Shown here piece after piece: positions 6,358 to 37,488 of a stretch of 38,813 nt of DNA. Under the pieces are notes generated by a model. The model was not told where the DNA came from, searched no databases, and was given only the letters and a program-made list of their open reading frames with translations. A program made the translations under genes and the position numbers. The stretch lies in UHGV virus genome UHGV-0123627; one strand, written 5' to 3'. Positions within the stretch are counted from its first letter, which is position 1. Each line of letters begins with the position of its first letter. This DNA comes from a virus.

Positions 6358-6490
6358 TTTTTGGGACTCCTGGCTGATTAAGTATGTCGATAAGGCGTTT
6401 CCATCCGTCACGTAATTTACGGGTGATTCGTTCAAGTAAAGATTCGGAAGGGCAGCCAGCAACAGGCCACCCTGCAATGGCATATTGCAT
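6326..6490 (-). CDS. cIII: cIII (FtsH inhibitor, stabilises CII)
   Basis: Manual translation gives the 54-aa [54 protein letters not shown], matching lambda CIII. Below the ORF-track size cutoff. Confidence 0.85.
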   Translation of the reverse strand: MQYAIAGWPVAGCPSESLLERITRKLRDGWKRLIDILNQPGVPKNGSNTYGYPD

Positions 6491-6562
6491 GGTGTGCTCC
6501 TTATTTATACATAACGAAAAACGCCTCGAGTGAAGCGTTATTGGTATGCGGTAACGCCGCGC

Positions 6563-8220: not shown

Positions 8221-9573
<1,353 letters not shown>

Positions 9574-14679: not shown

Positions 14680-15328
14680 TGGCAGCAAATACCGAAATAT
14701 TTGGGTAGTTGGCGATCTGCACGGATGCTACACGAACCTGATGAAAAAACTGGAGACGATGGGATTCGACACCAAAAAAGACCTGCTTATCTCGGTTGGC
14801 GATTTGGTCGATCGCGGTACAGAGAACGTCGAATGTCTGGAATTAATCACATTCCCCTGGTTCCGAGCTGTACGTGGAAACCATGAGCAAATGATGATTG
14901 ATGGCTTATCAGAGCGTGGAAACGTCAATCACTGGCTGTTTAATGGCGGTGGCTGGTTCTTTAATCTCGATTACGACAAAGAAATTCTGGCTAAAGCTCT
15001 TGCCCATAAAGCAGATGAACTTCCGTTAATCATCGAACTGGTGAGCGAAGGTAAAAAATATGTCATCTGCCACGCCGATTATCCTTGTGACGAATACGAA
15101 TTTGGAAAGCCAGTTGATCATCAGCAGGTAATCTGGAACCGCGAACGAATCAGCAACTCACAAGACGGGATCGTGAAAGAAATCAAAGGAGCTGACACGT
15201 TCATCTTTGGTCATACGCCAGCAGTGAAACCACTCAAGTTTGCCAACCAGATGTATATCGATACCGGCGCAGTGTTCTGCGGAAACCTCACATTGATTCA
15301 GGTACAGGGAGAAGGCGCGTGGGCATAA
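14657..15328 (+). CDS. ninI: NinI Ser/Thr protein phosphatase
   Basis: [29 protein letters not shown]...GNHE... metallophosphatase motifs; matches the lambda phosphatase. Confidence 0.9.
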
Positions 15329-15837
15329 GAGAACTAAACCTCACCAAAGAGCAGCACGAGTGGCTGAATGGCTGGCTTGAACTGTGGGGCGCATGGGTTT
15401 ATTCAGGTCGTCTGGAAAAGCGCATGAGCAGCGTAATAGCGAAGTTCATGGAGAGCGTAGAGCCGGGAAGAGTTATGACAAGGCCAATGTGCAATGATGA
15501 TGATGGAATGTTGATTTCTCAGGTCGTCGATTCCGTCATGTACATTGACAAAAAAGCCTTTGGCATCCTCCTCAGCTACTACGCTCATGGTTCATCTAAG
15601 CGAGCAATTGCATCCTACTATCACGCGACTGCAAAGCCACGCAAGATGTGTGGACGTGGTGGCGAGGGATGGAGAAAACCTTCACTGGCAACCTGTAGAA
15701 ACGAAATTGACGACATCCTGAAAGCGTCATTATTTGTTTTGTACCAACCAATGCAAAATGCTTTCAAAATGCGTAAACGTGTTGAGAAAGTTAAGCATGT
15801 TGCTGTTAAAAACCTTGACATGCAATTAGCCATTTAG
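15319..15837 (+). CDS. Late-gene antiterminator Q (non-lambda, QuuD/phage 82-like family)
   Basis: 172-aa ORF directly after ninI; the ...[12 protein letters not shown]... and ...[14 protein letters not shown]...YYAHG... segments resemble the ERWGAW / CDDD motifs of QuuD-type Q proteins as remembered. Not lambda Q. Confidence 0.65.
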
Positions 15838-15900: not shown

Positions 15901-15975
15901 GGGTCAGTCGTATAAAGGTCATTACGGAAGGCTGTTAACCTTCTTATCGTGGTTCGAGTCCACGCTGTCCCGCCA
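15901..15975 (+). tRNA. tRNA-like gene, anticodon GTT (Asn) by manual fold
   Basis: Hand-folded cloverleaf: T-arm CGTGG-TTCGAGT-CCACG, anticodon arm GAAGG-CTGTTAA-CCTTC, 3' end GCCA; the acceptor stem has one T-T mismatch and the D stem is 3 bp. Confidence 0.5.
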
Positions 15976-15980
15976 AATAT

Positions 15981-16056
15981 GCTGGTTTAGCTCCAATGGT
16001 AGAGCAGTCGCCTTGTAAGCGAATGGGTAGCGGTTCAAGTCCGTTAACCAGCACCA
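15981..16056 (+). tRNA. tRNA gene, anticodon TGT (Thr) by manual fold
   Basis: Perfect 7-bp acceptor stem GCTGGTT/AACCAGC, D-arm GCTC/GAGC, T-loop TTCAAGT, encoded CCA end; anticodon loop CTTGTAA. Confidence 0.7.
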
Positions 16057-30697: not shown

Positions 30698-33091
30698 ATG
30701 GCTAATTACCGTGATTTGTTAGAGCAGGCTGGCGCACGTTACGGTGTGCCAGAAGGGTTGATGACTGCACTGGGTGCCAAGGAGTCTTCTTACAACCCTG
30801 CCGCAGTAAGCTCCGCCGGGGCTGTAGGATTGACTCAGGTCATGCCTGGGACATGGCGTGATATGGGTTATACCGATGAGCAAATGCAAAACCCCGAATA
30901 TCAGGCTGACGCTGGCGCGCGCTATCTGGCAAAGATGTACCAGCAGTTTGGTAACTGGCGTGACGCTCTTCAGGCTTATCACGACGGTCCCGGCAACGTT
31001 ATGAAGGCAAAGCGTGGTGAATATACGCCAGGACCTGAAGGCCGCGGTTACGTTGATGATCGCTTTGCTCAATGGGCTGGTGACCCGGTGACAGACTCAA
31101 CAGTCGAACAGCGCGCCACCTCTGCAAAGGTACATCCTCAGCAAGACCCTAACAACCCGTTTGCACAACTGGAAGTACAGTCATCCGAACAAGTATCGGC
31201 ATCAGGTGTGCAGTCAGACCCAAATAATCCATTTGCTCAGATTGAGCAGCAGGCAGCCAGTCAGCAGCCACCTCAACCCGTAAGTTCTGTCGCACCGAAA
31301 CCTGTTCAGCAGCAAGGCGGAATAATGTCTGACCTTGGTAATGGACTTGCTGAAACCGGGCGCGGCTTACTACAGGCAGGAATCAACGTAGCGAACATAC
31401 CTGCTGAACTCACTGATGCTGTAACAAGCGCGGCGGCTTGGGCTGGCGGTAAACTCGGCATTGGCGATGGTACATATCAACCAGCGCCACGAGTAACAAC
31501 GCAGGGATTAGAGCAGGACTTTGGCCTTCAGCAAGGCGCGCTGACTCCACAAACGACAGAGGGAAGGGTATTTGCTGAAGCATTGCCTTACCTCACTCCT
31601 GCTGGCATTGAGAGAGCGGCAACACAGGCACCAACACTCGCTGGTAGAATCGCTCAGGGTGCAACTCGCCTTCTCGCTGAAAACGCAGTCGGGTCACTTG
31701 CTGCAAATAGTGCGAAAGATGATGCGGAAGCACTCGCTACCGATTTAGGTGTTGGCGTTCTGGCTGGCGGCGCTATTAACGCTGCCGGACGTGGATTAGG
31801 TGCTGCTTATCGTGGTGTTCGTGGTTCGATAGCACCAGAAGCGCAGCAGGCTATCAGATTTGCAGAGCGTGAAGGAGTTCCTCTGCACACCACAGACCTG
31901 TTACAACCAACCTCCCGCATCGGAAAAATGGCGCAGACTACAGCAGAAAATATCCCTCTGGCTGGCACAAGCGGAATGAGAGCAACGCAACAGGAAGCGA
32001 GAAGCCAGTTGGTGCAGAGATTTGCCGATAAATTCGGTGAGTATGATCCAGCGGTTGTTATTGACAGCCTTAAAGCGAAAACATCAGGAATTCGTCGTGC
32101 CGCCGGTAATCGACTGGAGCAGGTTCAGAATGCTATGGCTGGAGTAAACATTCAGCCTGCGCGAGCAATTCAGCAGATTGATACAGAAATATCTAACCTG
32201 CAGAAGCTTGGTAAGGTTGCTGATAACGAGACAATTTCAAAACTTCAGTCATATCGTGATGAGCTTGTTCGCAATGCTGGCCCTGATGGCCCGGTAAATC
32301 TGGATTTGAAGCAATTAAGCGATCTGCGCAGCCAGTTCAGAATGGACGTGAAGGGTGAGCGACCAGTGTTACCAAACCGTTCCGATGCCGCCATACAGCG
32401 CGTTTACAAGGCGATGACCGACGATATCAATGGTGCCATTGGTCAGAATCTTGGCAATGATACTCTTCGTAAATATCAGCAGGCCAATTCCGTCTACGCT
32501 GACGAAGCGGCGAAACTAAAGAATACCAGGCTGAAGAATGTTCTCATGAAAGGCGACCTGACGCCGGAAGTTGTCAACAACATGCTATTCAGCAAGAACA
32601 AATCTGAAATTAAGACGCTGTATAACTCAGTTGGTCGTGTTGGCAGGGCGCAAATGCGCAATGGCATCATTGGAAAGGCGATGGAGAAATCTGGCGGATC
32701 CCCTGACCAGTTCCTTCGGCAGCTTAACATCCTGCAAAACCAGACTGGCATCACATTTAAGGGGCAGGATGCTGATTATCTGAAAGGATTGAAAAATTAC
32801 CTTCAGTCCACTCAGCAGGCAGCAAAAGCGGCAGTAACAACACCAACAGGGCAGCAAACCATCCCGTTCATTATCGGGTATGGGACGGCAATGAACCCGG
32901 CGACAACTGGCGCAGCGGTAAGCTACGGACTTCTTACTCGCGCCTATGAGAGCGAACCATTCAGAAATGCAATGCTCCGAATGGCAAACACCCCACGCGG
33001 ATCGACAGCGTTTGAGAAAGCCATGCAGCAAGCGCAAAAAGCGATTAATGCACTGACGCAGGGTGCGAAGTCTGATTCGTTATCAGAATAG
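30698..33091 (+). CDS. Ejection/internal protein (P22 gp16 position) with N-terminal lytic transglycosylase domain
   Basis: 797-aa; N-terminal about 130 aa carry an SLT-like motif (AKESSYNPAAVSSAGAVGLTQVMPGTW ... AYHDGPGN); the remainder is Ala/Gly/Gln-rich. Confidence 0.75.
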   Translation: MANYRDLLEQAGARYGVPEGLMTALGAKESSYNPAAVSSAGAVGLTQVMPGTWRDMGYTDEQMQNPEYQADAGARYLAKMYQQFGNWRDALQAYHDGPGNVMKAKRGEYTPGPEGRGYVDDRFAQWAGDPVTDSTVEQRATSAKVHPQQDPNNPFAQLEVQSSEQVSASGVQSDPNNPFAQIEQQAASQQPPQPVSSVAPKPVQQQGGIMSDLGNGLAETGRGLLQAGINVANIPAELTDAVTSAAAWAGGKLGIGDGTYQPAPRVTTQGLEQDFGLQQGALTPQTTEGRVFAEALPYLTPAGIERAATQAPTLAGRIAQGATRLLAENAVGSLAANSAKDDAEALATDLGVGVLAGGAINAAGRGLGAAYRGVRGSIAPEAQQAIRFAEREGVPLHTTDLLQPTSRIGKMAQTTAENIPLAGTSGMRATQQEARSQLVQRFADKFGEYDPAVVIDSLKAKTSGIRRAAGNRLEQVQNAMAGVNIQPARAIQQIDTEISNLQKLGKVADNETISKLQSYRDELVRNAGPDGPVNLDLKQLSDLRSQFRMDVKGERPVLPNRSDAAIQRVYKAMTDDINGAIGQNLGNDTLRKYQQANSVYADEAAKLKNTRLKNVLMKGDLTPEVVNNMLFSKNKSEIKTLYNSVGRVGRAQMRNGIIGKAMEKSGGSPDQFLRQLNILQNQTGITFKGQDADYLKGLKNYLQSTQQAAKAAVTTPTGQQTIPFIIGYGTAMNPATTGAAVSYGLLTRAYESEPFRNAMLRMANTPRGSTAFEKAMQQAQKAINALTQGAKSDSLSE

Positions 33092-33181: not shown

Positions 33182-33667
33182 TTATCTGATGCTACTGCTA
33201 CTGTTGCATGTTACCGTGTTTCCAAATCCTGAATTGCAGTTTGTATATGTGTCAACGCGTGTTGGGTAAGGTTGAGTTATAACAGGCTGGCGCGCTTTTT
33301 GCTCGATCGCTTGCATTGTGTTTACAGCCTGATAATTCAATAAAGCCTGCTGGAATGCTTGGCTTTGTGCTATTTGTTGGGCTTGTTCTTGGCTTTGTAA
33401 TTGAACATAAAGATTCTGAAGCTCAAGTCTTGCCTGTGCGTCACTTATCTTGCCTTCATCGACGCCTTGCCCGAGCATCTTTGCAGCAAGGACATACAGC
33501 TTAGGTGTTGGTGCTGATGCCATGCGTGAGTCGTTCTTCACACTGGCATCAAGGCAATTAGCCATATCGCTAAGCTTTTGATAGCGTTGTTCGCAACTTG
33601 CTTGATAGTCACTTACTTTTGCGCATCCAACCAGCAGAAGCGGGATAATTAACAGTGATTTTTTCAT
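33182..33667 (-). CDS. Predicted lipoprotein (161 aa), hypothetical
   Basis: MKKSLLIIPLLLVGCAK with lipobox LLVGC; Gln-rich C-terminal part; AAGGAG upstream. Confidence 0.7.
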   Translation of the reverse strand: MKKSLLIIPLLLVGCAKVSDYQASCEQRYQKLSDMANCLDASVKNDSRMASAPTPKLYVLAAKMLGQGVDEGKISDAQARLELQNLYVQLQSQEQAQQIAQSQAFQQALLNYQAVNTMQAIEQKARQPVITQPYPTRVDTYTNCNSGFGNTVTCNSSSSIR

Positions 33668-33737
33668 ATGGTTAACTCTCCTTAGTTTTTCACAGGATAT
33701 CATGAAGGCAATGCCATTTTAGCCGGAAACTAGATTT

Positions 33738-34004
33738 CTATGTTTCCTTTTTATTATTGCTATACATGGTCTTAAGCGTTTCAAAAACCATTTTCTTAAC
33801 CATATCAGATTGTTGCTCTGCCATACGCTCTGCATCGTCAATGTAAACGGATGCAGAGCTTTGTTTAGCCAATGATTCTTCAATCGCTGCAATTATCTCT
33901 GAGTTCAGCGATCTGTTATTCATCTTCGCACGCTGTTTAATTTTCGCGTGGAGTTCATGCGGAAGTCTCAAGTGAAACTGCGCCTCGTCGTATTTGCTGT
34001 ACAT
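33738..34004 (-). CDS. mnt: Mnt-like ribbon-helix-helix repressor
   Basis: ...SLNSEIIAAIEESLAKQSSASVYIDDAERMAEQQSDMVKKMVFETLKTMY... parallels P22 Mnt (RSMNSELLQIVQDAL...NDAERLADEQSELVKKMVFDTLKDLYKK) as remembered. Confidence 0.8.
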   Translation of the reverse strand: MYSKYDEAQFHLRLPHELHAKIKQRAKMNNRSLNSEIIAAIEESLAKQSSASVYIDDAERMAEQQSDMVKKMVFETLKTMYSNNKKET

Positions 34005-34125
34005 CCTTGATGCCTCACCAGTTGGGTGGAATGGCATCGTAACCTACTGGATAAATACTCAATAGTACCATTTCGGTATGCAATCAAATCATGGTTGCAT
34101 CATATCATTCGTCTGGAGCAATGAA

Positions 34126-35931
34126 ATGTCAGATATCACCGCAAATGTTGTGGTAAGCATGCCTTCTCAACTCTTCACTATGGCTCGTTCTTTTAAAGCT
34201 GTAGCCAATGGCAAAATTTATATCGGTAAAATTGACACTGACCCGGTAAATCCTGAAAACCAGATTCAGGTTTATATAGAGAACGAAGACGGTTCTCACG
34301 TTCCTGTTTCGCAACCAATCATCATTAATGCTGCTGGTTACCCCGTATATAACGGACAGATTACCAAGTTCGTAACTGTACAGAATCACTCCATGGCTGT
34401 ATATGATGCGTATGGCGCACAACAATTCTATTATCCTGATCTACTGAAATATTCTCCAGATCAGTTAAGGGCTGAGCTTTCTGGCCCTGATGGCGCATCT
34501 CTGGTTGGTTATGGAGATGAAACTGTCAAAGATGCTCTTGACAATAATGCCCATAAAATAGATACGTTGAGAAGTGACTTGGCTGCTGATGATGGCTTTC
34601 GCCACATAGGCAACTTTCTCAATTTAGATGCGCTGAGGGATTCAATACCATTAGTTGCTGGAGAAATTGTCTATGTAGCTTCAGCAGCAAGTGCTACAGC
34701 AACTGAAAAACATTATGGCGGTGGTTACTTCCAGTCTTTCGACAATAGCACATCACAGATTGCCGATGATGGAGGGATTGTTATTGTTCCAAGTTCAGGT
34801 AAATTTGCTTGGAGGAGGGTTGTTGATGGTGAGATATGGGTAGAGTATTTTGGAGCAAAACCGATAAATGATTTTGACAACGCCTCTGCAATATCAAAGG
34901 CTTTATCATATGGATATGATAATAATACCCCTATTCATTTTATGTCAGGTGAATATCTAACCTCCGAAAGTCCTGTTGTAAAGTCATGGTCTGGAATCAT
35001 AGGTCAAGGTCAAAATAAGACGATTATCTCTAAAACAACAAATAACGCGAACACCATAATTTCTGGAGTCTCAGTGGATGCACTGCTGATTATTCTTCCA
35101 AAAAAATTCGTTGTAGATGGTGTTGAGAGTGATAACTATGCTACAGGCGTAGAGATACAAGGTGTTACTTTAAGACGTCATGAAATTATAGATAGAAATA
35201 ATCAACCAACATATGGAATATACTCTCCTTACATGGCTTCAAGTTTGTTAAGAGACTTGCGTGTAGAATGTGGGTATTATGGTTTTTGGGGTGAAGATTG
35301 CTTCTCAAATATATTTGAACGGTGCGGTTTTTTAGGTTTGGCTATTGGGCAGTTTACTGGTTTTTATTTAGGTAAAGTGAGGGATGGTATATATAACCTT
35401 TCTGGAACAAGTAATCTTCTAGACCAGGTGGGAGTTGTTAATTATCAAATTGGTTTTGAAATTGACGCTCAACAGTACACAACACTAAATTGTTGTACTG
35501 CTGATTCTATATTTCCTATGTCTGGTACTACTGAGACAATATCAAGAGCTTATCTTTTCAATAACCCTCATGGAATAACAATGAATAGTTGTGGAAGTGA
35601 GAATGTAAAGGGGGAAAGAATAGCAGTAGTCCAAGCTTCGCCATCTATTTATGACGGTACAATGGTGATAAATGGATGTCAATTTCAGGTTGTCCCAGCA
35701 AATCCACCAATTTCTTTGCCAATATTTAGGTTTGAGAACAATGGCACAAATTCATTTAATTTGTACATAACAGTAAATTCATCTAACTTTCGTCGAGATT
35801 CTTCTACAACACCAAACCTAATTCAAGGATATGTTTATGGTGGTACTGGCGCTGTCACAGTCGTAAGATTCATAGCATCTGTTCTTGAAGATCCGATAAC
35901 GGCAGGAAATGTAGATGTTAAACTAATTTAG
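34126..35931 (+). CDS. Tailspike protein (P22 gp9-like head-binding domain, divergent receptor-binding domain)
   Basis: [79 protein letters not shown]... matches the P22 tailspike N-terminal domain; the rest is dissimilar; GGAG 7 nt upstream. Confidence 0.9.
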
Positions 35932-36027: not shown

Positions 36028-37488
36028 TTATTTACATAAAGAATCATCAAAACTCACCATTACATTCTCATTATCACGATAAATTTTAATATCATTAGAT
36101 GAATAAATTAGTGTTGATTTACAATAGTCCTTCATGAACATAGATACTTCTTTACTGGAAAAATCAGGATAATTTTGATTTACTCCTCTAATCTTGAGGT
36201 ATACATGAGAGCCATACCAGTTATAGAAGTAGTCGAGTACTATTGTTTTGAATAGTGGATAATTTAATTCTGAATTAAGTAGTATAGGGGATTTTGGTGA
36301 ACTACCATTAAACATAACATTAACACTATTTTCGGGTATGTTTTTTAACGCTAGCCCAATAATTTCAGCAATGTATTTATTTTTATCATCTTGTGCTCGC
36401 AAAGCATTTCCATATGAATAAAAAAGAGTAATTATATAAAAAAGGAATATTAAAAATATACCGTTGACAATTCTTGTGTTATTTATTCCCAAATATAAAA
36501 GGGTGAAGATGAATAAAAAAAGACCATTAAACCCAATATAAACCCTTGCAAAAGTTGTTAGAGTGTTTTCAAGGAGAAGTAATGAAATCATTGATGATAT
36601 AAAAGTCAAAGGTAATGATAACACTGCCATCAAAGATAAAAAAACAGCAGCATTACACTTGTGTTTTTTAATGTAAACAAAAACCAATTTAATGGCAAAT
36701 GCAAATGATACAATAAAACTACCAATTAATAATTCACTCCCATGCTCAGGGATTATATTTCTAGTGTAGAAATCATAATACGCAATAAAGTTCTTATGAA
36801 TTACATCTATAATATTTGTGGCAACTCCTGGGTGATTTTGACTATTGTCATTAACATGAGTTAACGGCAGTACAACCCTCATATAGATAACAGCGCCAAC
36901 CAATACTTCGATAATTCGAAATGCAATTGACTTTATTATGTGTGTTGGCTCTTTATTATTCTTTATGTTAACAAACATTTCTATAGAGATTAATATAAAA
37001 ACTATATTAATAGATGCTTGGTAAAATGAAAATAAGATAACTATAAAGCTAGAATGTAAAATAAATGAAATTACCGTGTTTTTATAGTTTAGACAAATAA
37101 ATGCAAATGCAAAAAATATCGAAGCTGAGATGGTTAAGCTATCAAACCTGTATGATAGAGGTTCGATTATAAATGGACTTAATAAAAATGACAACGGTAA
37201 AAAAAGATAATGATTATCTGAATTAAATAATTTAATGTGAAATAGATAAAATGAAATAGACAATAGCAAACATGCTATTATTAGAGGCAATGGAGCCAAG
37301 TCAGTTAGATGATTGTTAAAATTAAGAATAATCATTAATCTATCTGATAATGGTCTACCATCAATTCCCCAATAAGTTACGCCGCTCATTGCTCTGCTCA
37401 TATCATCGCTGTAGTAAACATTTGCAATTATAATTGGGAGCGCAAGTAAGAATGTGATAAATAAGTAAATCTTAATGTTATTTTTCAT
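36028..37488 (-). CDS. Serotype-specific O-antigen glucosyltransferase (GtrC-type polytopic membrane protein)
   Basis: 486-aa very hydrophobic multi-TM protein in AT-rich DNA, directly downstream of gtrB in the same operon. Confidence 0.75.

Follow-up and report, generated by a model that had tools for sequence, protein, structure and literature searches.

An orphan mnt gene and a companion lipoprotein gene in the ant moron of a P22-like prophage

Introduction

What does an mnt repressor gene do when the arc and ant genes that lie beside it in phage P22 are missing, and what is the role of the lipoprotein gene that accompanies it? These questions are raised by a segment (33182-34125) of the viral genome UHGV-0123627, a complete 38.8-kb P22-like prophage, the entire 38,813-nucleotide sequence of which is referred to here as the window. 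The equivalent interval of P22, between genes 16 and 9, contains sieA, orf59a, mnt, arc, sar and ant, and variable segments of this type have been termed 'ant morons', of which ten types were recognized among sixteen genomes, with mnt-only versions in ST64T and ST104 (Villafane et al. 2008, PMC2629481). We have examined the gene content, putative regulatory sites and relatives of the locus so as to ask what the orphan Mnt is likely to control, how the adjacent tailspike gene may be expressed, and what the lipoprotein might contribute to a lysogen.

Gene content of the locus

The segment contains two leftward genes, coding for a 161-aa lipoprotein and an 88-aa Mnt homologue, with the lipoprotein gene positioned 70 bp downstream of mnt and both antisense to the late operon (Table 1). 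They are divergent from the tailspike gene, which begins at 34126, and the mnt-tailspike intergenic region is 121 bp long (34005-34125), as the first-pass annotation of this DNA had stated. The left border is formed by a gp16-type DNA-ejection protein (Pfam SLT, 3e-25; phrog_770 'DNA transfer protein', 8.5e-240) that is 33% identical to P22 gp16 across 587 aa, and the right border by a tailspike with a Pfam Head_binding domain (7.3e-66) whose residues 1-117 share 72% identity with P22 gp9. With both borders identified, the interval has the anatomy of an ant moron, namely a variable set of non-structural genes between gene 16 and gene 9 homologues.

Searching the complete prophage by tblastn with the P22 proteins gives no match to Arc (best E 2.2), Ant (best E 1.1), SieA (best E 1.0) or the orf59a product, and within the window we find neither an arc gene divergent from mnt nor an ant antirepressor gene. 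A scan of 30 further ORFs against PHROGs likewise reveals no antirepressor, with a few ORFs staying without a named function, and no Rfam RNA family is matched within the mnt/lipoprotein locus. The initial description of an Mnt homologue at the sieA/immI position, beside a lipoprotein gene and lacking arc and ant, is thus upheld by the Pfam, PDB and tblastn comparisons and by the P22 map, and no overlooked arc or ant homologue has come to light.

Table 1. Coordinates of genes and of predicted sites at the mnt/lipoprotein locus and its borders.
Feature	Position	Strand	Remarks
gp16-type DNA-ejection protein gene, 797 aa	30698..33091	+	Left border of moron; N-terminal SLT lytic transglycosylase domain
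Lipoprotein gene, 161-aa precursor	33182..33667	-	Full-length match to phrog_6067 (unknown function), 6.5e-110
Signal peptide and lipobox Cys codon, residues 1-15, MKKSLLIIPLLLVGC	33623..33667	-	Read from sequence
Candidate extended -10 of lipoprotein gene, TGaTATCCT	33694..33702	-	Conserved motif
mnt homologue, 88 aa, start at second in-frame ATG	33738..34004	-	Ribbon-helix-helix N-domain and C-terminal tetramerisation helix
Pmnt-equivalent promoter, predicted	34036..34062	-	-35 TTGAGT (rc 34057-34062), -10 TACGAT (rc 34036-34041), 15-bp spacer
Putative Mnt operator, AGTACCATTTCGGTATG, 17 bp	34064..34080		Arms TACC/GGTA symmetric, centre 34072, P22 O-mnt position
Inverted repeat/hairpin, ATGCAATCA-N5-TGGTTGCAT, 9-bp arms	34078..34100	+	Tailspike leader
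Second leftward promoter-like site, CTGACA-17-AATGAT	34104..34132	-	Consensus 9/12; PWM 7.7 bits
Tailspike gene, 601 aa	34126..35931	+	Right border of moron; P22-type head-binding domain

The Mnt homologue and its putative operator

The Mnt homologue is 47% identical to P22 Mnt and has both of its domains. The N-terminal domain matches Pfam Arc (PF03869) with an E-value of 1.1e-14 (54 bits against a cutoff of 20.4 bits), the C-terminal coiled-coil tetramerization domain matches Repressor_Mnt (PF11423; 3.9e-12), and among PDB entries there is similarity to 1mnt (5.7e-19 over residues 6-78) and 1qey (1.2e-6). A Shine-Dalgarno sequence, GGTGAGG, is present at 34013-34019. We rejected a 99-aa reading from the first in-frame ATG (34037) because this codon lies inside the predicted -10 hexamer, a stop codon interrupts the extension in a related locus (L013), and the relatives begin with MYSKYDE.

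The gene is under strong purifying selection. Intact reading frames are present in 111 of 113 related mnt genes, with 31-aa truncations in two contigs, and over codons 1-45, which encode the DNA-binding domain, pN/pS is 0.088 at a synonymous divergence of 0.42. Decay has nonetheless occurred in a Citrobacter locus, which has an in-frame stop codon together with a mutated operator, and in Morganella, where mnt is reduced to its final ~30 nt.

It had been proposed that an inverted repeat, ATGGTA...TACCAT, in the mnt-tailspike intergenic region could serve as an operator. The literal repeat is absent, as TACCAT is present at 34066-34071 but the + strand of this region has no ATGGTA, which is simply the complement of that same TACCAT; the closest partner of TACCAT is ATGGTT at 34091-34096. 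The sequence surrounding TACCAT does, however, constitute an operator-like element, a symmetric site of about 17 bp located beside the gene's own promoter. Comparison with P22 O-mnt shows that it has the same offset from a CAAT(A/C)G motif although its sequence is different. The pattern GTACCN5GGTAY occurs once in the window, with 0.00 occurrences expected in shuffled sequences, and no second copy that might represent a remote target was found elsewhere in the prophage.

Across 17 loci, the operator sequence co-varies with the residues of the Mnt N-terminal strand, and three main specificity classes can be recognized. Mnt proteins with the strand HFNFRM, as in P22, have the operator GTCCAC-G-GTGGAC, those with QFNLRL or QFNFRM have operators resembling GACCAC-N-GTGGTC, and the strand QFHLRL, which is that of the window, is associated with GTACC-N5-GGTAT. 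This last operator is kept in at least 120 viral contigs, and its arms are unchanged across five genera. We infer that Mnt binds to the putative operator at 34064-34080.

The hairpin in the tailspike leader is confined to the lineage that includes the window and Sf101, and the P22 'boundary sequence' hairpin is found there in other lineages. Of the cells in an alignment of ten variants, 96.7% are paired; both partners are changed in one pair, and variation at four others is confined to G-U wobble on the + strand, which hints weakly that the pairing may be maintained.

Promoters and expression of the tailspike gene

We have used promoter weight matrices to compare 11 orphan-mnt loci (10 distinct sequences, the window included) with loci in which immI is complete. 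A rightward Pant promoter scoring 15-16 bits is present only in the loci that have arc and ant (15.9 bits in P22), and none of the 11 orphan-mnt loci has a rightward promoter above about 6-7 bits at the Pant position, the best match in the window scoring 5.6 bits. No rightward promoter is positionally conserved among the orphan-mnt loci scanned, and a simple consensus scan of the window also yields none. In contrast, all 11 still have the leftward Pmnt-like promoter, which lies at a set distance from the operator. Its position, about -38 from the operator centre, is conserved with P22 and with every orphan-mnt locus compared; in the lineage of the window, Sf101 and L013 the offset is -36 and the spacer is 2 bp shorter. 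The resulting 15-bp spacer, together with a weak -10 hexamer (7.9 bits), makes the activity of Pmnt in this lineage uncertain. The second leftward promoter-like site is not conserved beyond the window lineage; that it acts as a promoter is speculative, and its transcript would cross the operator.

The tailspike gene is situated at the end of a late operon that has a Q-like antiterminator. Because the orphan-mnt loci scanned lack a strong Pant-like promoter and keep the leftward Pmnt, read-through of the late operon is the simplest way in which the tailspike could be expressed.

The lipoprotein

The first-pass annotation had recognized a 161-aa lipoprotein with a lipobox, and this is confirmed: a 14-residue signal peptide (within MKKSLLIIPLLLVGC) is followed at the end of L-V-G-C by Cys15, with Ala at +2. 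These four residues fit the lipobox consensus [LVI][ASTVI][GAS]C. The protein is predicted to be lipid-modified at Cys15 and located in a membrane, and because of the Ala at +2 it would probably be sorted to the outer membrane. There are further cysteines at positions 25, 38, 144 and 154, and all of 34 aligned homologues retain Cys15, Cys25, Cys38 and Cys154; the lipobox cysteine is likewise invariant in 25 remote relatives. An AF2 model has a helical N-domain, which is a generic four-helix bundle, followed by a Gln-rich helix and a C-terminal cysteine hairpin.

Database searches offer few clues to function. Nothing was found for the lipoprotein in Pfam, NCBIfam, PADLOC or the PDB sequences (the sole NCBIfam hit, GspK, is below threshold and involves the Gln-rich helix), Foldseek reports no match in PDB or BFVD with E <= 0.001, and among PHROGs phrog_6067 alone is significant, with a tail-protein family at 0.0098. 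No known structural protein was matched, so this potential objection to a role in exclusion does not apply. We also considered whether the lipoprotein could be a spanin, and rejected this because an Rz-like spanin is already present in the lysis cassette.

SieA of P22 blocks DNA injection, with the gp16/gp20 conduit as its target; it is a polytopic inner-membrane protein with three to four predicted transmembrane helices, depending on type, and its family has the conserved motif FxRYPxEAxxFNK (PMC10883804). The window lipoprotein gene shares with sieA its slot, its orientation antisense to the late operon and, presumably, expression from the prophage, but its product is hydrophobic only at the signal peptide, lacks this motif, and has no sequence similarity to SieA. 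T5 Llp, phi80/N15 Cor and Ltp of the Streptococcus phage TP-J34 are likewise small phage-encoded envelope lipoproteins and offer a functional analogy, although none has sequence, profile or fold similarity to the lipoprotein described here. These three come from siphoviruses with protein receptors. From its position and by such analogies, it is plausible that the lipoprotein is a superinfection-exclusion factor.

The lipoprotein gene has a Shine-Dalgarno sequence, AAGGAG, at 33678-33683, and the upstream sequence CATG(A/G/C)TATCCTG, which is conserved in at least four distinct upstream contexts, may be its promoter. An intrinsic terminator is not evident 3' of the gene in the window (z = 0.11); one follows the lipoprotein gene in both the Proteus phage Brookers and Morganella. 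The GC content of the window lipoprotein gene is 0.44 compared with 0.51-0.52 for the ejection genes, and copies at least 96% identical are found beside a full immI region, beside an orphan mnt, or with no mnt, such that at least five alternative moron contents surround the same lipoprotein. In Yersinia and Morganella the lipoprotein gene is present without mnt. Judged from these sequence contexts, the lipoprotein gene is an independent cassette, yet one that recurs downstream of mnt even where the lipoprotein (locus L225) is merely 39% identical; because it also occurs without mnt, control by Mnt cannot be obligatory.

There are 94 clusters of homologues, and every named source among them belongs to the Enterobacterales; a profile search extends the relatives to 246. 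At least one remote relative is chromosomal and lies among uvrC, udg, earP and bio genes, which argues against the fold being anti-phage by its nature; a single-protein scan of the remote relatives gave no phage context.

A proposed reduced ant moron and alternative explanations

We propose that the locus is a reduced form of the ant moron (the sieA/immI region) from which arc, ant and the strong rightward Pant have been removed by deletion. What is left over would be a leftward unit antisense to the late operon, consisting of a Pmnt-like promoter, mnt, the 70-bp gap and the lipoprotein gene, the last of these possibly with a weak extended -10 promoter of its own. Mnt would be intact and functional, its QFHLRL strand recognizing GTACC-N5-GGTAT centred ~43 bp upstream of the predicted Pmnt start, and since in a prophage without Pant or ant its sole target would be its own control region, it is most likely an autoregulator. 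It would thereby set the prophage-state level of mnt and of the downstream lipoprotein, although both the sign of this regulation and the co-transcription of the two genes are things that we infer. The tailspike would be expressed from a Q-antiterminated late transcript that reads through the moron, and the lipoprotein would be lysogenic-conversion cargo, exported, lipidated and probably placed in the outer membrane, where its position and analogy point to an envelope-level block on superinfecting phages as its most likely function. As a whole we regard this account as moderately probable. A more specific version is doubtful, namely that the phrog_6067 lipoprotein is a new outer-membrane/periplasmic exclusion factor that blocks the gp7/gp20/gp16 conduit from the outer side and functionally replaces SieA, with an Mnt of hitherto undescribed specificity (GTACC-N5-GGTAT) autoregulating the operon from which both are expressed.

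Several other explanations deserve consideration. The orphan Mnt might have been rewired onto a promoter that directly drives the tailspike gene, which would place the tailspike under the control of Mnt in the lysogen or early after infection, an extension of the rewiring that the first-pass annotation had suggested; the operator ends 46 bp before the tailspike ATG (34080 versus 34126) and is in the path of rightward transcription, and the P22 moron has been suggested to affect tailspike levels, perhaps with the involvement of Mnt and Arc (PMC2629481). The promoter comparisons do not bear this out, as the 11 orphan-mnt loci scanned uniformly lack a strong Pant-like promoter and the tailspike gene ends a late operon equipped with an antiterminator, and we consider rewiring highly improbable. 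Mnt of a P22 prophage acts in trans on superinfecting genomes, and a related role in immunity can be envisaged here, in which the prophage Mnt silences ant of a superinfecting P22-like phage with matching immI specificity and so spares the C2-type repressor from inactivation and the lysogen from induction. The strong selection on the DNA-binding domain of an Mnt with no ant in cis would fit, as would the existence of several specificity classes, which an immunity-type arms race is expected to produce. However, of the 120 or more contigs with the GTACC-N5-GGTAT operator, none among the matches listed has an intact ant downstream, and we therefore see no target phage of this class; at least 115 have a tailspike there, the single exception being an ant remnant. 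Trans immunity thus seems unlikely.

That mnt is a functionless relic not yet decayed, with the lipoprotein expressed independently, could account for the loss of arc, ant and Pant, the sub-optimal Pmnt spacer, the occasional decayed copies, and the candidate promoter in front of the lipoprotein gene, but is hard to reconcile with the preponderance of intact genes, the low pN/pS and the invariant operator arms, or with the persistence of the arrangement in the functional phages Sf101 and Brookers; we think this very unlikely. Another reading is that the lipoprotein does not exclude phages at all and serves the envelope or host fitness more generally, for example as a conversion factor for serum resistance, stress or adhesion. 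The broad set of relatives with at least one chromosomal member, the generic N-domain, and the lack of likeness to PADLOC models or to exclusion proteins already known all lean this way. On the other hand, the Enterobacterales family is tied to the P22 sieA slot, in P22-like prophages from eight genera or more, so that a function directed at P22-like infection fits, if circumstantially. We give a host-fitness role a modest probability.

With the reduced ant moron as the preferred reading, the locus is one more variant of a known hyper-variable cassette and changes little in our understanding of it. Of broader interest, the covariation of Mnt strand and operator constitutes a natural specificity series for DNA recognition by ribbon-helix-helix proteins, and would explain why orphan mnt genes persist under selection. 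The lipoprotein is a conserved and unstudied prophage cargo, carried by about 2% of complete E. coli genomes and by several other Enterobacterales. Should it indeed exclude P22-like phages, this group would have its first exclusion factor of the outer envelope, and the protein would be relevant to the prediction of phage host range.

Distribution and relationship to known loci

The first-pass annotation implied that the arrangement is rare, and this view does not hold. Apart from the published mnt-only ant morons, the module is present in 106 of 5426 complete genomes of E. coli; isolated phages have it as well, with mnt only in Sf101 and IME10 and with both mnt and the lipoprotein gene in Brookers. 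The architecture of the locus is thus ordinary, and variable cassettes of this kind are common in P22-like prophages and have been described before.

Relative to P22 immI, the window shares the slot between genes 16 and 9, the two-domain Mnt, the leftward Pmnt-like promoter and the operator offset, but differs in lacking arc, ant, sar and Pant, in having the recognition strand QFHLRL and operator GTACC-N5-GGTAT in place of HFNFRM and GTCCAC-G-GTGGAC, and in having the lipoprotein gene and not orf59a downstream of mnt. [quoted passage not shown] Sf101 and IME10 are 96.7% identical to the window in nucleotide sequence over mnt and the intergenic region, but in Sf101 no gene is annotated between the gp16 homologue and mnt, and a lipoprotein is thus missing; ST64T differs in having a class II Mnt with the operator GACCAC-C-GTGGTC and another companion gene.

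The gene order of the window is shared by a Providencia locus and by Brookers (vB_PmiP_Brookers, OL539469), whose gp13-gp16 are an ejection protein, a lipoprotein (-), an Arc/Mnt protein (-) and a tailspike (+). The Brookers lipoprotein and Mnt are respectively 55% and 49% identical to those of the window, and Brookers differs in its class II operator, its mnt-lipoprotein gap of 17 bp, and the clear intrinsic terminator noted above. Traces in keeping with an origin by deletion are visible at other loci: L178 keeps a 3' remnant of ant together with Tant, and in VSe13, JEP4 and ST64T the operator is fused to the P22 gene 9 leader.

An essentially complete P22-like prophage

The 38.8-kb window is an essentially complete P22-like (Lederbergvirus-type) prophage. 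PHROG scans recover integrase, excisionase, exo/bet/gam/kil, an N-like antiterminator, cII, replication genes (O and DnaB), nin genes and lysis genes; the morphogenesis block closes with homologues of P22 genes 7, 20 and 16, and gtrCBA lies beyond the tailspike gene on the opposite strand. The interval studied extends from the stop codon of the gene-16 homologue (33091) to the tailspike gene.

Several other features were recorded. The gene-16 product has 797 residues, against 609 in P22, with an SLT lytic transglycosylase domain fused N-terminally to the ejection protein. Two tRNA genes lie where the late operon begins, directly 3′ of the gene for the Q-like antiterminator, and a match to the lambda cIII thermoregulator RNA adjoins the kil homologue. 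The very low GC content of the gtrC-like gene (0.28, against 0.47 prophage-wide) suggests a recent gain from a distant source.

Features of the prophage, with emphasis on the gene 16-tailspike interval
Feature	Coordinates	Strand	Evidence
Lambda cIII thermoregulator RNA	6445-6503	-	Rfam, 88.5 bits
cI/C2-type repressor	8622-9254		PHROG scan
Q-like antiterminator	15319-15837		PHROG scan
tRNA Asn-GTT and Thr-TGT genes	15901-16056	+	
Gene-16 homologue	30698-33091		
Lipoprotein (161 aa)	33182-33667	-	phrog_6067, end to end
mnt homologue	33738-34004	-	Pfam Arc 1.1e-14, Repressor_Mnt 3.9e-12
Pmnt-like promoter	34036-34062	leftward	
Putative operator	34064-34080		
Hairpin-forming repeat	34078-34100	+	
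Second promoter-like site	34132-34104	leftward	CTGACA-17-AATGAT
Tailspike gene	34126-35931		Head_binding 7.3e-66
gtrC-like gene	36028-37488	-	

An orphan mnt in a known cassette

The first-pass annotation had placed only an mnt homologue and a lipoprotein gene in this interval; both reading frames are real. That annotation is mostly right in observation and partly right in interpretation. The Mnt homologue is 47% identical to P22 Mnt and matches PDB entries 1mnt (5.7e-19) and 1qey (1.2e-6). Its start is the second ATG (34004), preceded by GGTGAGG and giving an 88-aa product; the upstream extension has a stop codon in Escherichia sp. L013, and relatives begin MYSKYDE, in line with this start, given which the reported 121-bp mnt-tailspike intergenic region holds. 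The P22 map agrees that the equivalent interval there carries sieA, orf59a, mnt, arc, sar and ant. The claimed absence of arc and ant is borne out: P22 Arc, Ant, SieA and orf59a give no tblastn match in the window, and PHROG scans reveal no antirepressor family among 30 other ORFs. We note that RefSeq and PHROG annotation of the P22, ST64T and Sf101 records (our loci L001, L005 and L010) labels Mnt a 'partition protein ATPase' (phrog_795), evidently a propagated mis-annotation of a ribbon-helix-helix repressor.

Villafane et al. (PMC2629481) named this interval the 'ant moron' and described ten versions in sixteen P22-like genomes. ST64T has the order tailspike, mnt, gp16; the mnt allele and intergenic region of the window (96.7% nucleotide identity) recur in Shigella phage Sf101 and coliphage IME10, directly adjoining the tailspike gene, and the order of ejection gene, lipoprotein, mnt and tailspike is reproduced exactly in Proteus phage Brookers. 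At 95-99% identity the full 1039-bp module occurs in 106 of 5426 complete E. coli genomes; 438 contain part of it. As a variant of a documented, hyper-variable phage cassette, the locus is ordinary and frequent.

Putative operators and Mnt specificity

An alignment of the sequences upstream of mnt at 17 loci (P22, ST64T, Gally, VSe13, JEP4, Sf101, Brookers, eight loci from genomes or metagenomes, IMG/VR contig L178 and the window) shows in every case a symmetric element at a constant distance after a CAAT(A/C)G motif. The operator suggested earlier was thus in the right place for the wrong reason: of the proposed inverted repeat ATGGTA...TACCAT, TACCAT is present (34066-34071) but ATGGTA is merely its complement. 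The 17-mer identified here occurs once in the prophage, its pattern is not expected by chance, and among the 120 viral contigs listed with the window's operator class its arms are invariant and its flanks variable.

Putative operators by Mnt N-terminal strand
Strand	Operator	Loci
HFNFRM	GTCCAC-G-GTGGAC	P22, Pluralibacter, Pectobacterium
QFNLRL or QFNFRM	GACCAC-N-GTGGTC-like	Gally, ST64T, Brookers, Providencia, L225
QFHLRL	GTACC-N5-GGTAT	window, Sf101, L013, VSe13, JEP4, Serratia, Citrobacter
QFNFRM (exception)	ATATCAC-G-GTGATAT, a different palindrome	Candidatus Phlomobacter (L017)

Across the 17 loci the operator sequence tracks the N-terminal strand of Mnt. Mutagenesis by Knight and Sauer reportedly placed base contacts at P22 Mnt residues 2, 6, 8 and 10, and positions 6 and 8 are those that differ between the classes. 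These apparent specificity classes are a modestly new point.

Promoters and the tailspike leader

Sigma-70 promoters were scored on both strands of 14 of the aligned regions with one weight matrix. Where arc and ant are present, there is a strong rightward Pant (TTGACA-17-TATATT, 15-16 bits) together with a leftward Pmnt of 12.2 bits, its -10 ending 38.5 bp from the centre of the operator. All orphan-mnt loci scored retain a leftward promoter at the Pmnt offset (7.5-11.5 bits); at the Pant position, no rightward promoter exceeds about 6-7 bits in any of them. This absence of a Pant-like promoter from every orphan locus compared, a modestly new point, leaves the idea that Mnt has been rewired onto a tailspike promoter without support.

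A 2-bp deletion (CGTAACC, compared with CGTAAAACC in L002, the VSe13 locus, and L012) has shortened the spacer of Pmnt to 15 bp in the lineage of the window, Sf101 and L013, and only here does the second promoter-like site occur, beyond the operator. Just past the operator, the tailspike leader has a repeat able to form a hairpin on the + strand, with 96.7% of pairing kept over ten natural variants; a double change converts one pair (G:C to U:A, in L013), and four others vary solely via G-U wobble. The GC-rich hairpin of the P22 'boundary sequence' occupies the same position in other lineages, and a hairpin here may be conserved among gene-9 leaders.

Origin and maintenance of the orphan mnt

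In VSe13, JEP4, ST64T and Gally the operator is fused directly to the conserved P22 gene-9 leader, the 'boundary sequence' annotated in CUS-3. Contig L178 (380-760) has a window-class operator and boundary sequence followed by the last 86 ant codons, a P22-type ant terminator and the tailspike gene, and is a putative deletion intermediate. Because the operator abuts the leader, L178 keeps an ant remnant, and orphan loci have no strong promoter at the Pant position, arc, ant and Pant were in all probability lost jointly by deletion.

The orphan mnt is clearly maintained. It is intact in 111 of the 113 assessable genes adjoining the window's operator class, and over the 45 codons of its DNA-binding domain mean pS is 0.42 and pN 0.037 (ratio 0.088). 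The C-terminal tetramerisation segment is a mosaic: in the 113 loci 44 nearly invariant N-terminal residues are joined to several unrelated C-terminal versions, one of them P22-like, which implies that the two domains have recombined. Decay is sporadic. The Citrobacter sp. gene (L015, 3501-3734, of the window's class) is interrupted by an in-frame stop at codon 5, and the left operator arm reads TACT for TACC; repressor and site seem to be decaying in parallel. The Morganella prophage (L007, 5960-6000; see also L011) lacks mnt and has, just upstream of the lipoprotein gene, about 35 nt identical to the Brookers mnt 3′ end and spacer, a deletion scar that attests a former mnt.

Since mnt is maintained and the putative operator is the only such site in the prophage, located some 43 bp upstream of the start inferred for Pmnt, the simplest role for Mnt would be autoregulation of the leftward unit. 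Immunity in trans against ant-bearing relatives is an attractive alternative, but an intact ant follows a window-class operator in none of the 120 viral contigs listed, and we consider it unlikely. The order mnt-lipoprotein recurs even where the lipoprotein is only 39% identical (L225), so the presumed co-transcription is likely old.

The lipoprotein

The N-terminus, MKKSLLIIPLLLVGC, is a canonical signal peptide and lipobox, and the Ala at +2 suggests the outer membrane as the predicted destination. The phrog_6067 family is of unknown function; Pfam, PADLOC and PDB sequences give no significant match, and NCBIfam only a sub-threshold one. Of the 94 homologue clusters, all with a named source are from Enterobacterales. 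In the family alignment the lipobox Cys is invariant, as are two Cys of a helical N-domain; a Gln-rich helix and a C-terminal T-x-C...G...C hairpin are further features. The pattern is consistent with a disulfide-bonded protein of the periplasm or outer membrane. The AF2 model, moderate in confidence (pLDDT ~80 over residues 18-94, low elsewhere), has structural matches only to generic four-helix bundles. A profile search adds 246 remoter relatives, about 125-140 aa long, that share the cysteine pattern and belong to no Pfam family; one is chromosomal amid housekeeping genes and another is in a different phage-like contig. Defining this unstudied, widespread family is a modestly new point. Our best guess is that the lipoprotein may exclude P22-like phages, as had been proposed: it occupies the sieA position, and Llp, Cor and Ltp offer an analogy, but no homology backs the idea. 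Exclusion would be easy to test.

In Yersinia, Morganella, Proteus and Providencia the gene always lies between the gene-16 homologue and the tailspike gene. Of 80 viral contigs whose copy is at least 96% identical, about 51 share the window's architecture; ant, alone or with arc, is additionally present in about 17, another small gene separates lipoprotein and mnt in about 9, and 2 have no mnt. The lipoprotein gene is therefore an independent cassette, set apart by a lower GC content too (0.44, against 0.51-0.52 in the ejection genes); a TG-n-TATCCT element upstream of it is conserved in several contexts. In VSe13 (L002, 4643-4933; 96 aa, annotated 'antirepressor protein') and Gally (L003, 4709-5128; 139 aa, hypothetical) a small additional gene, rightward, lies between lipoprotein and mnt; the window lacks it.
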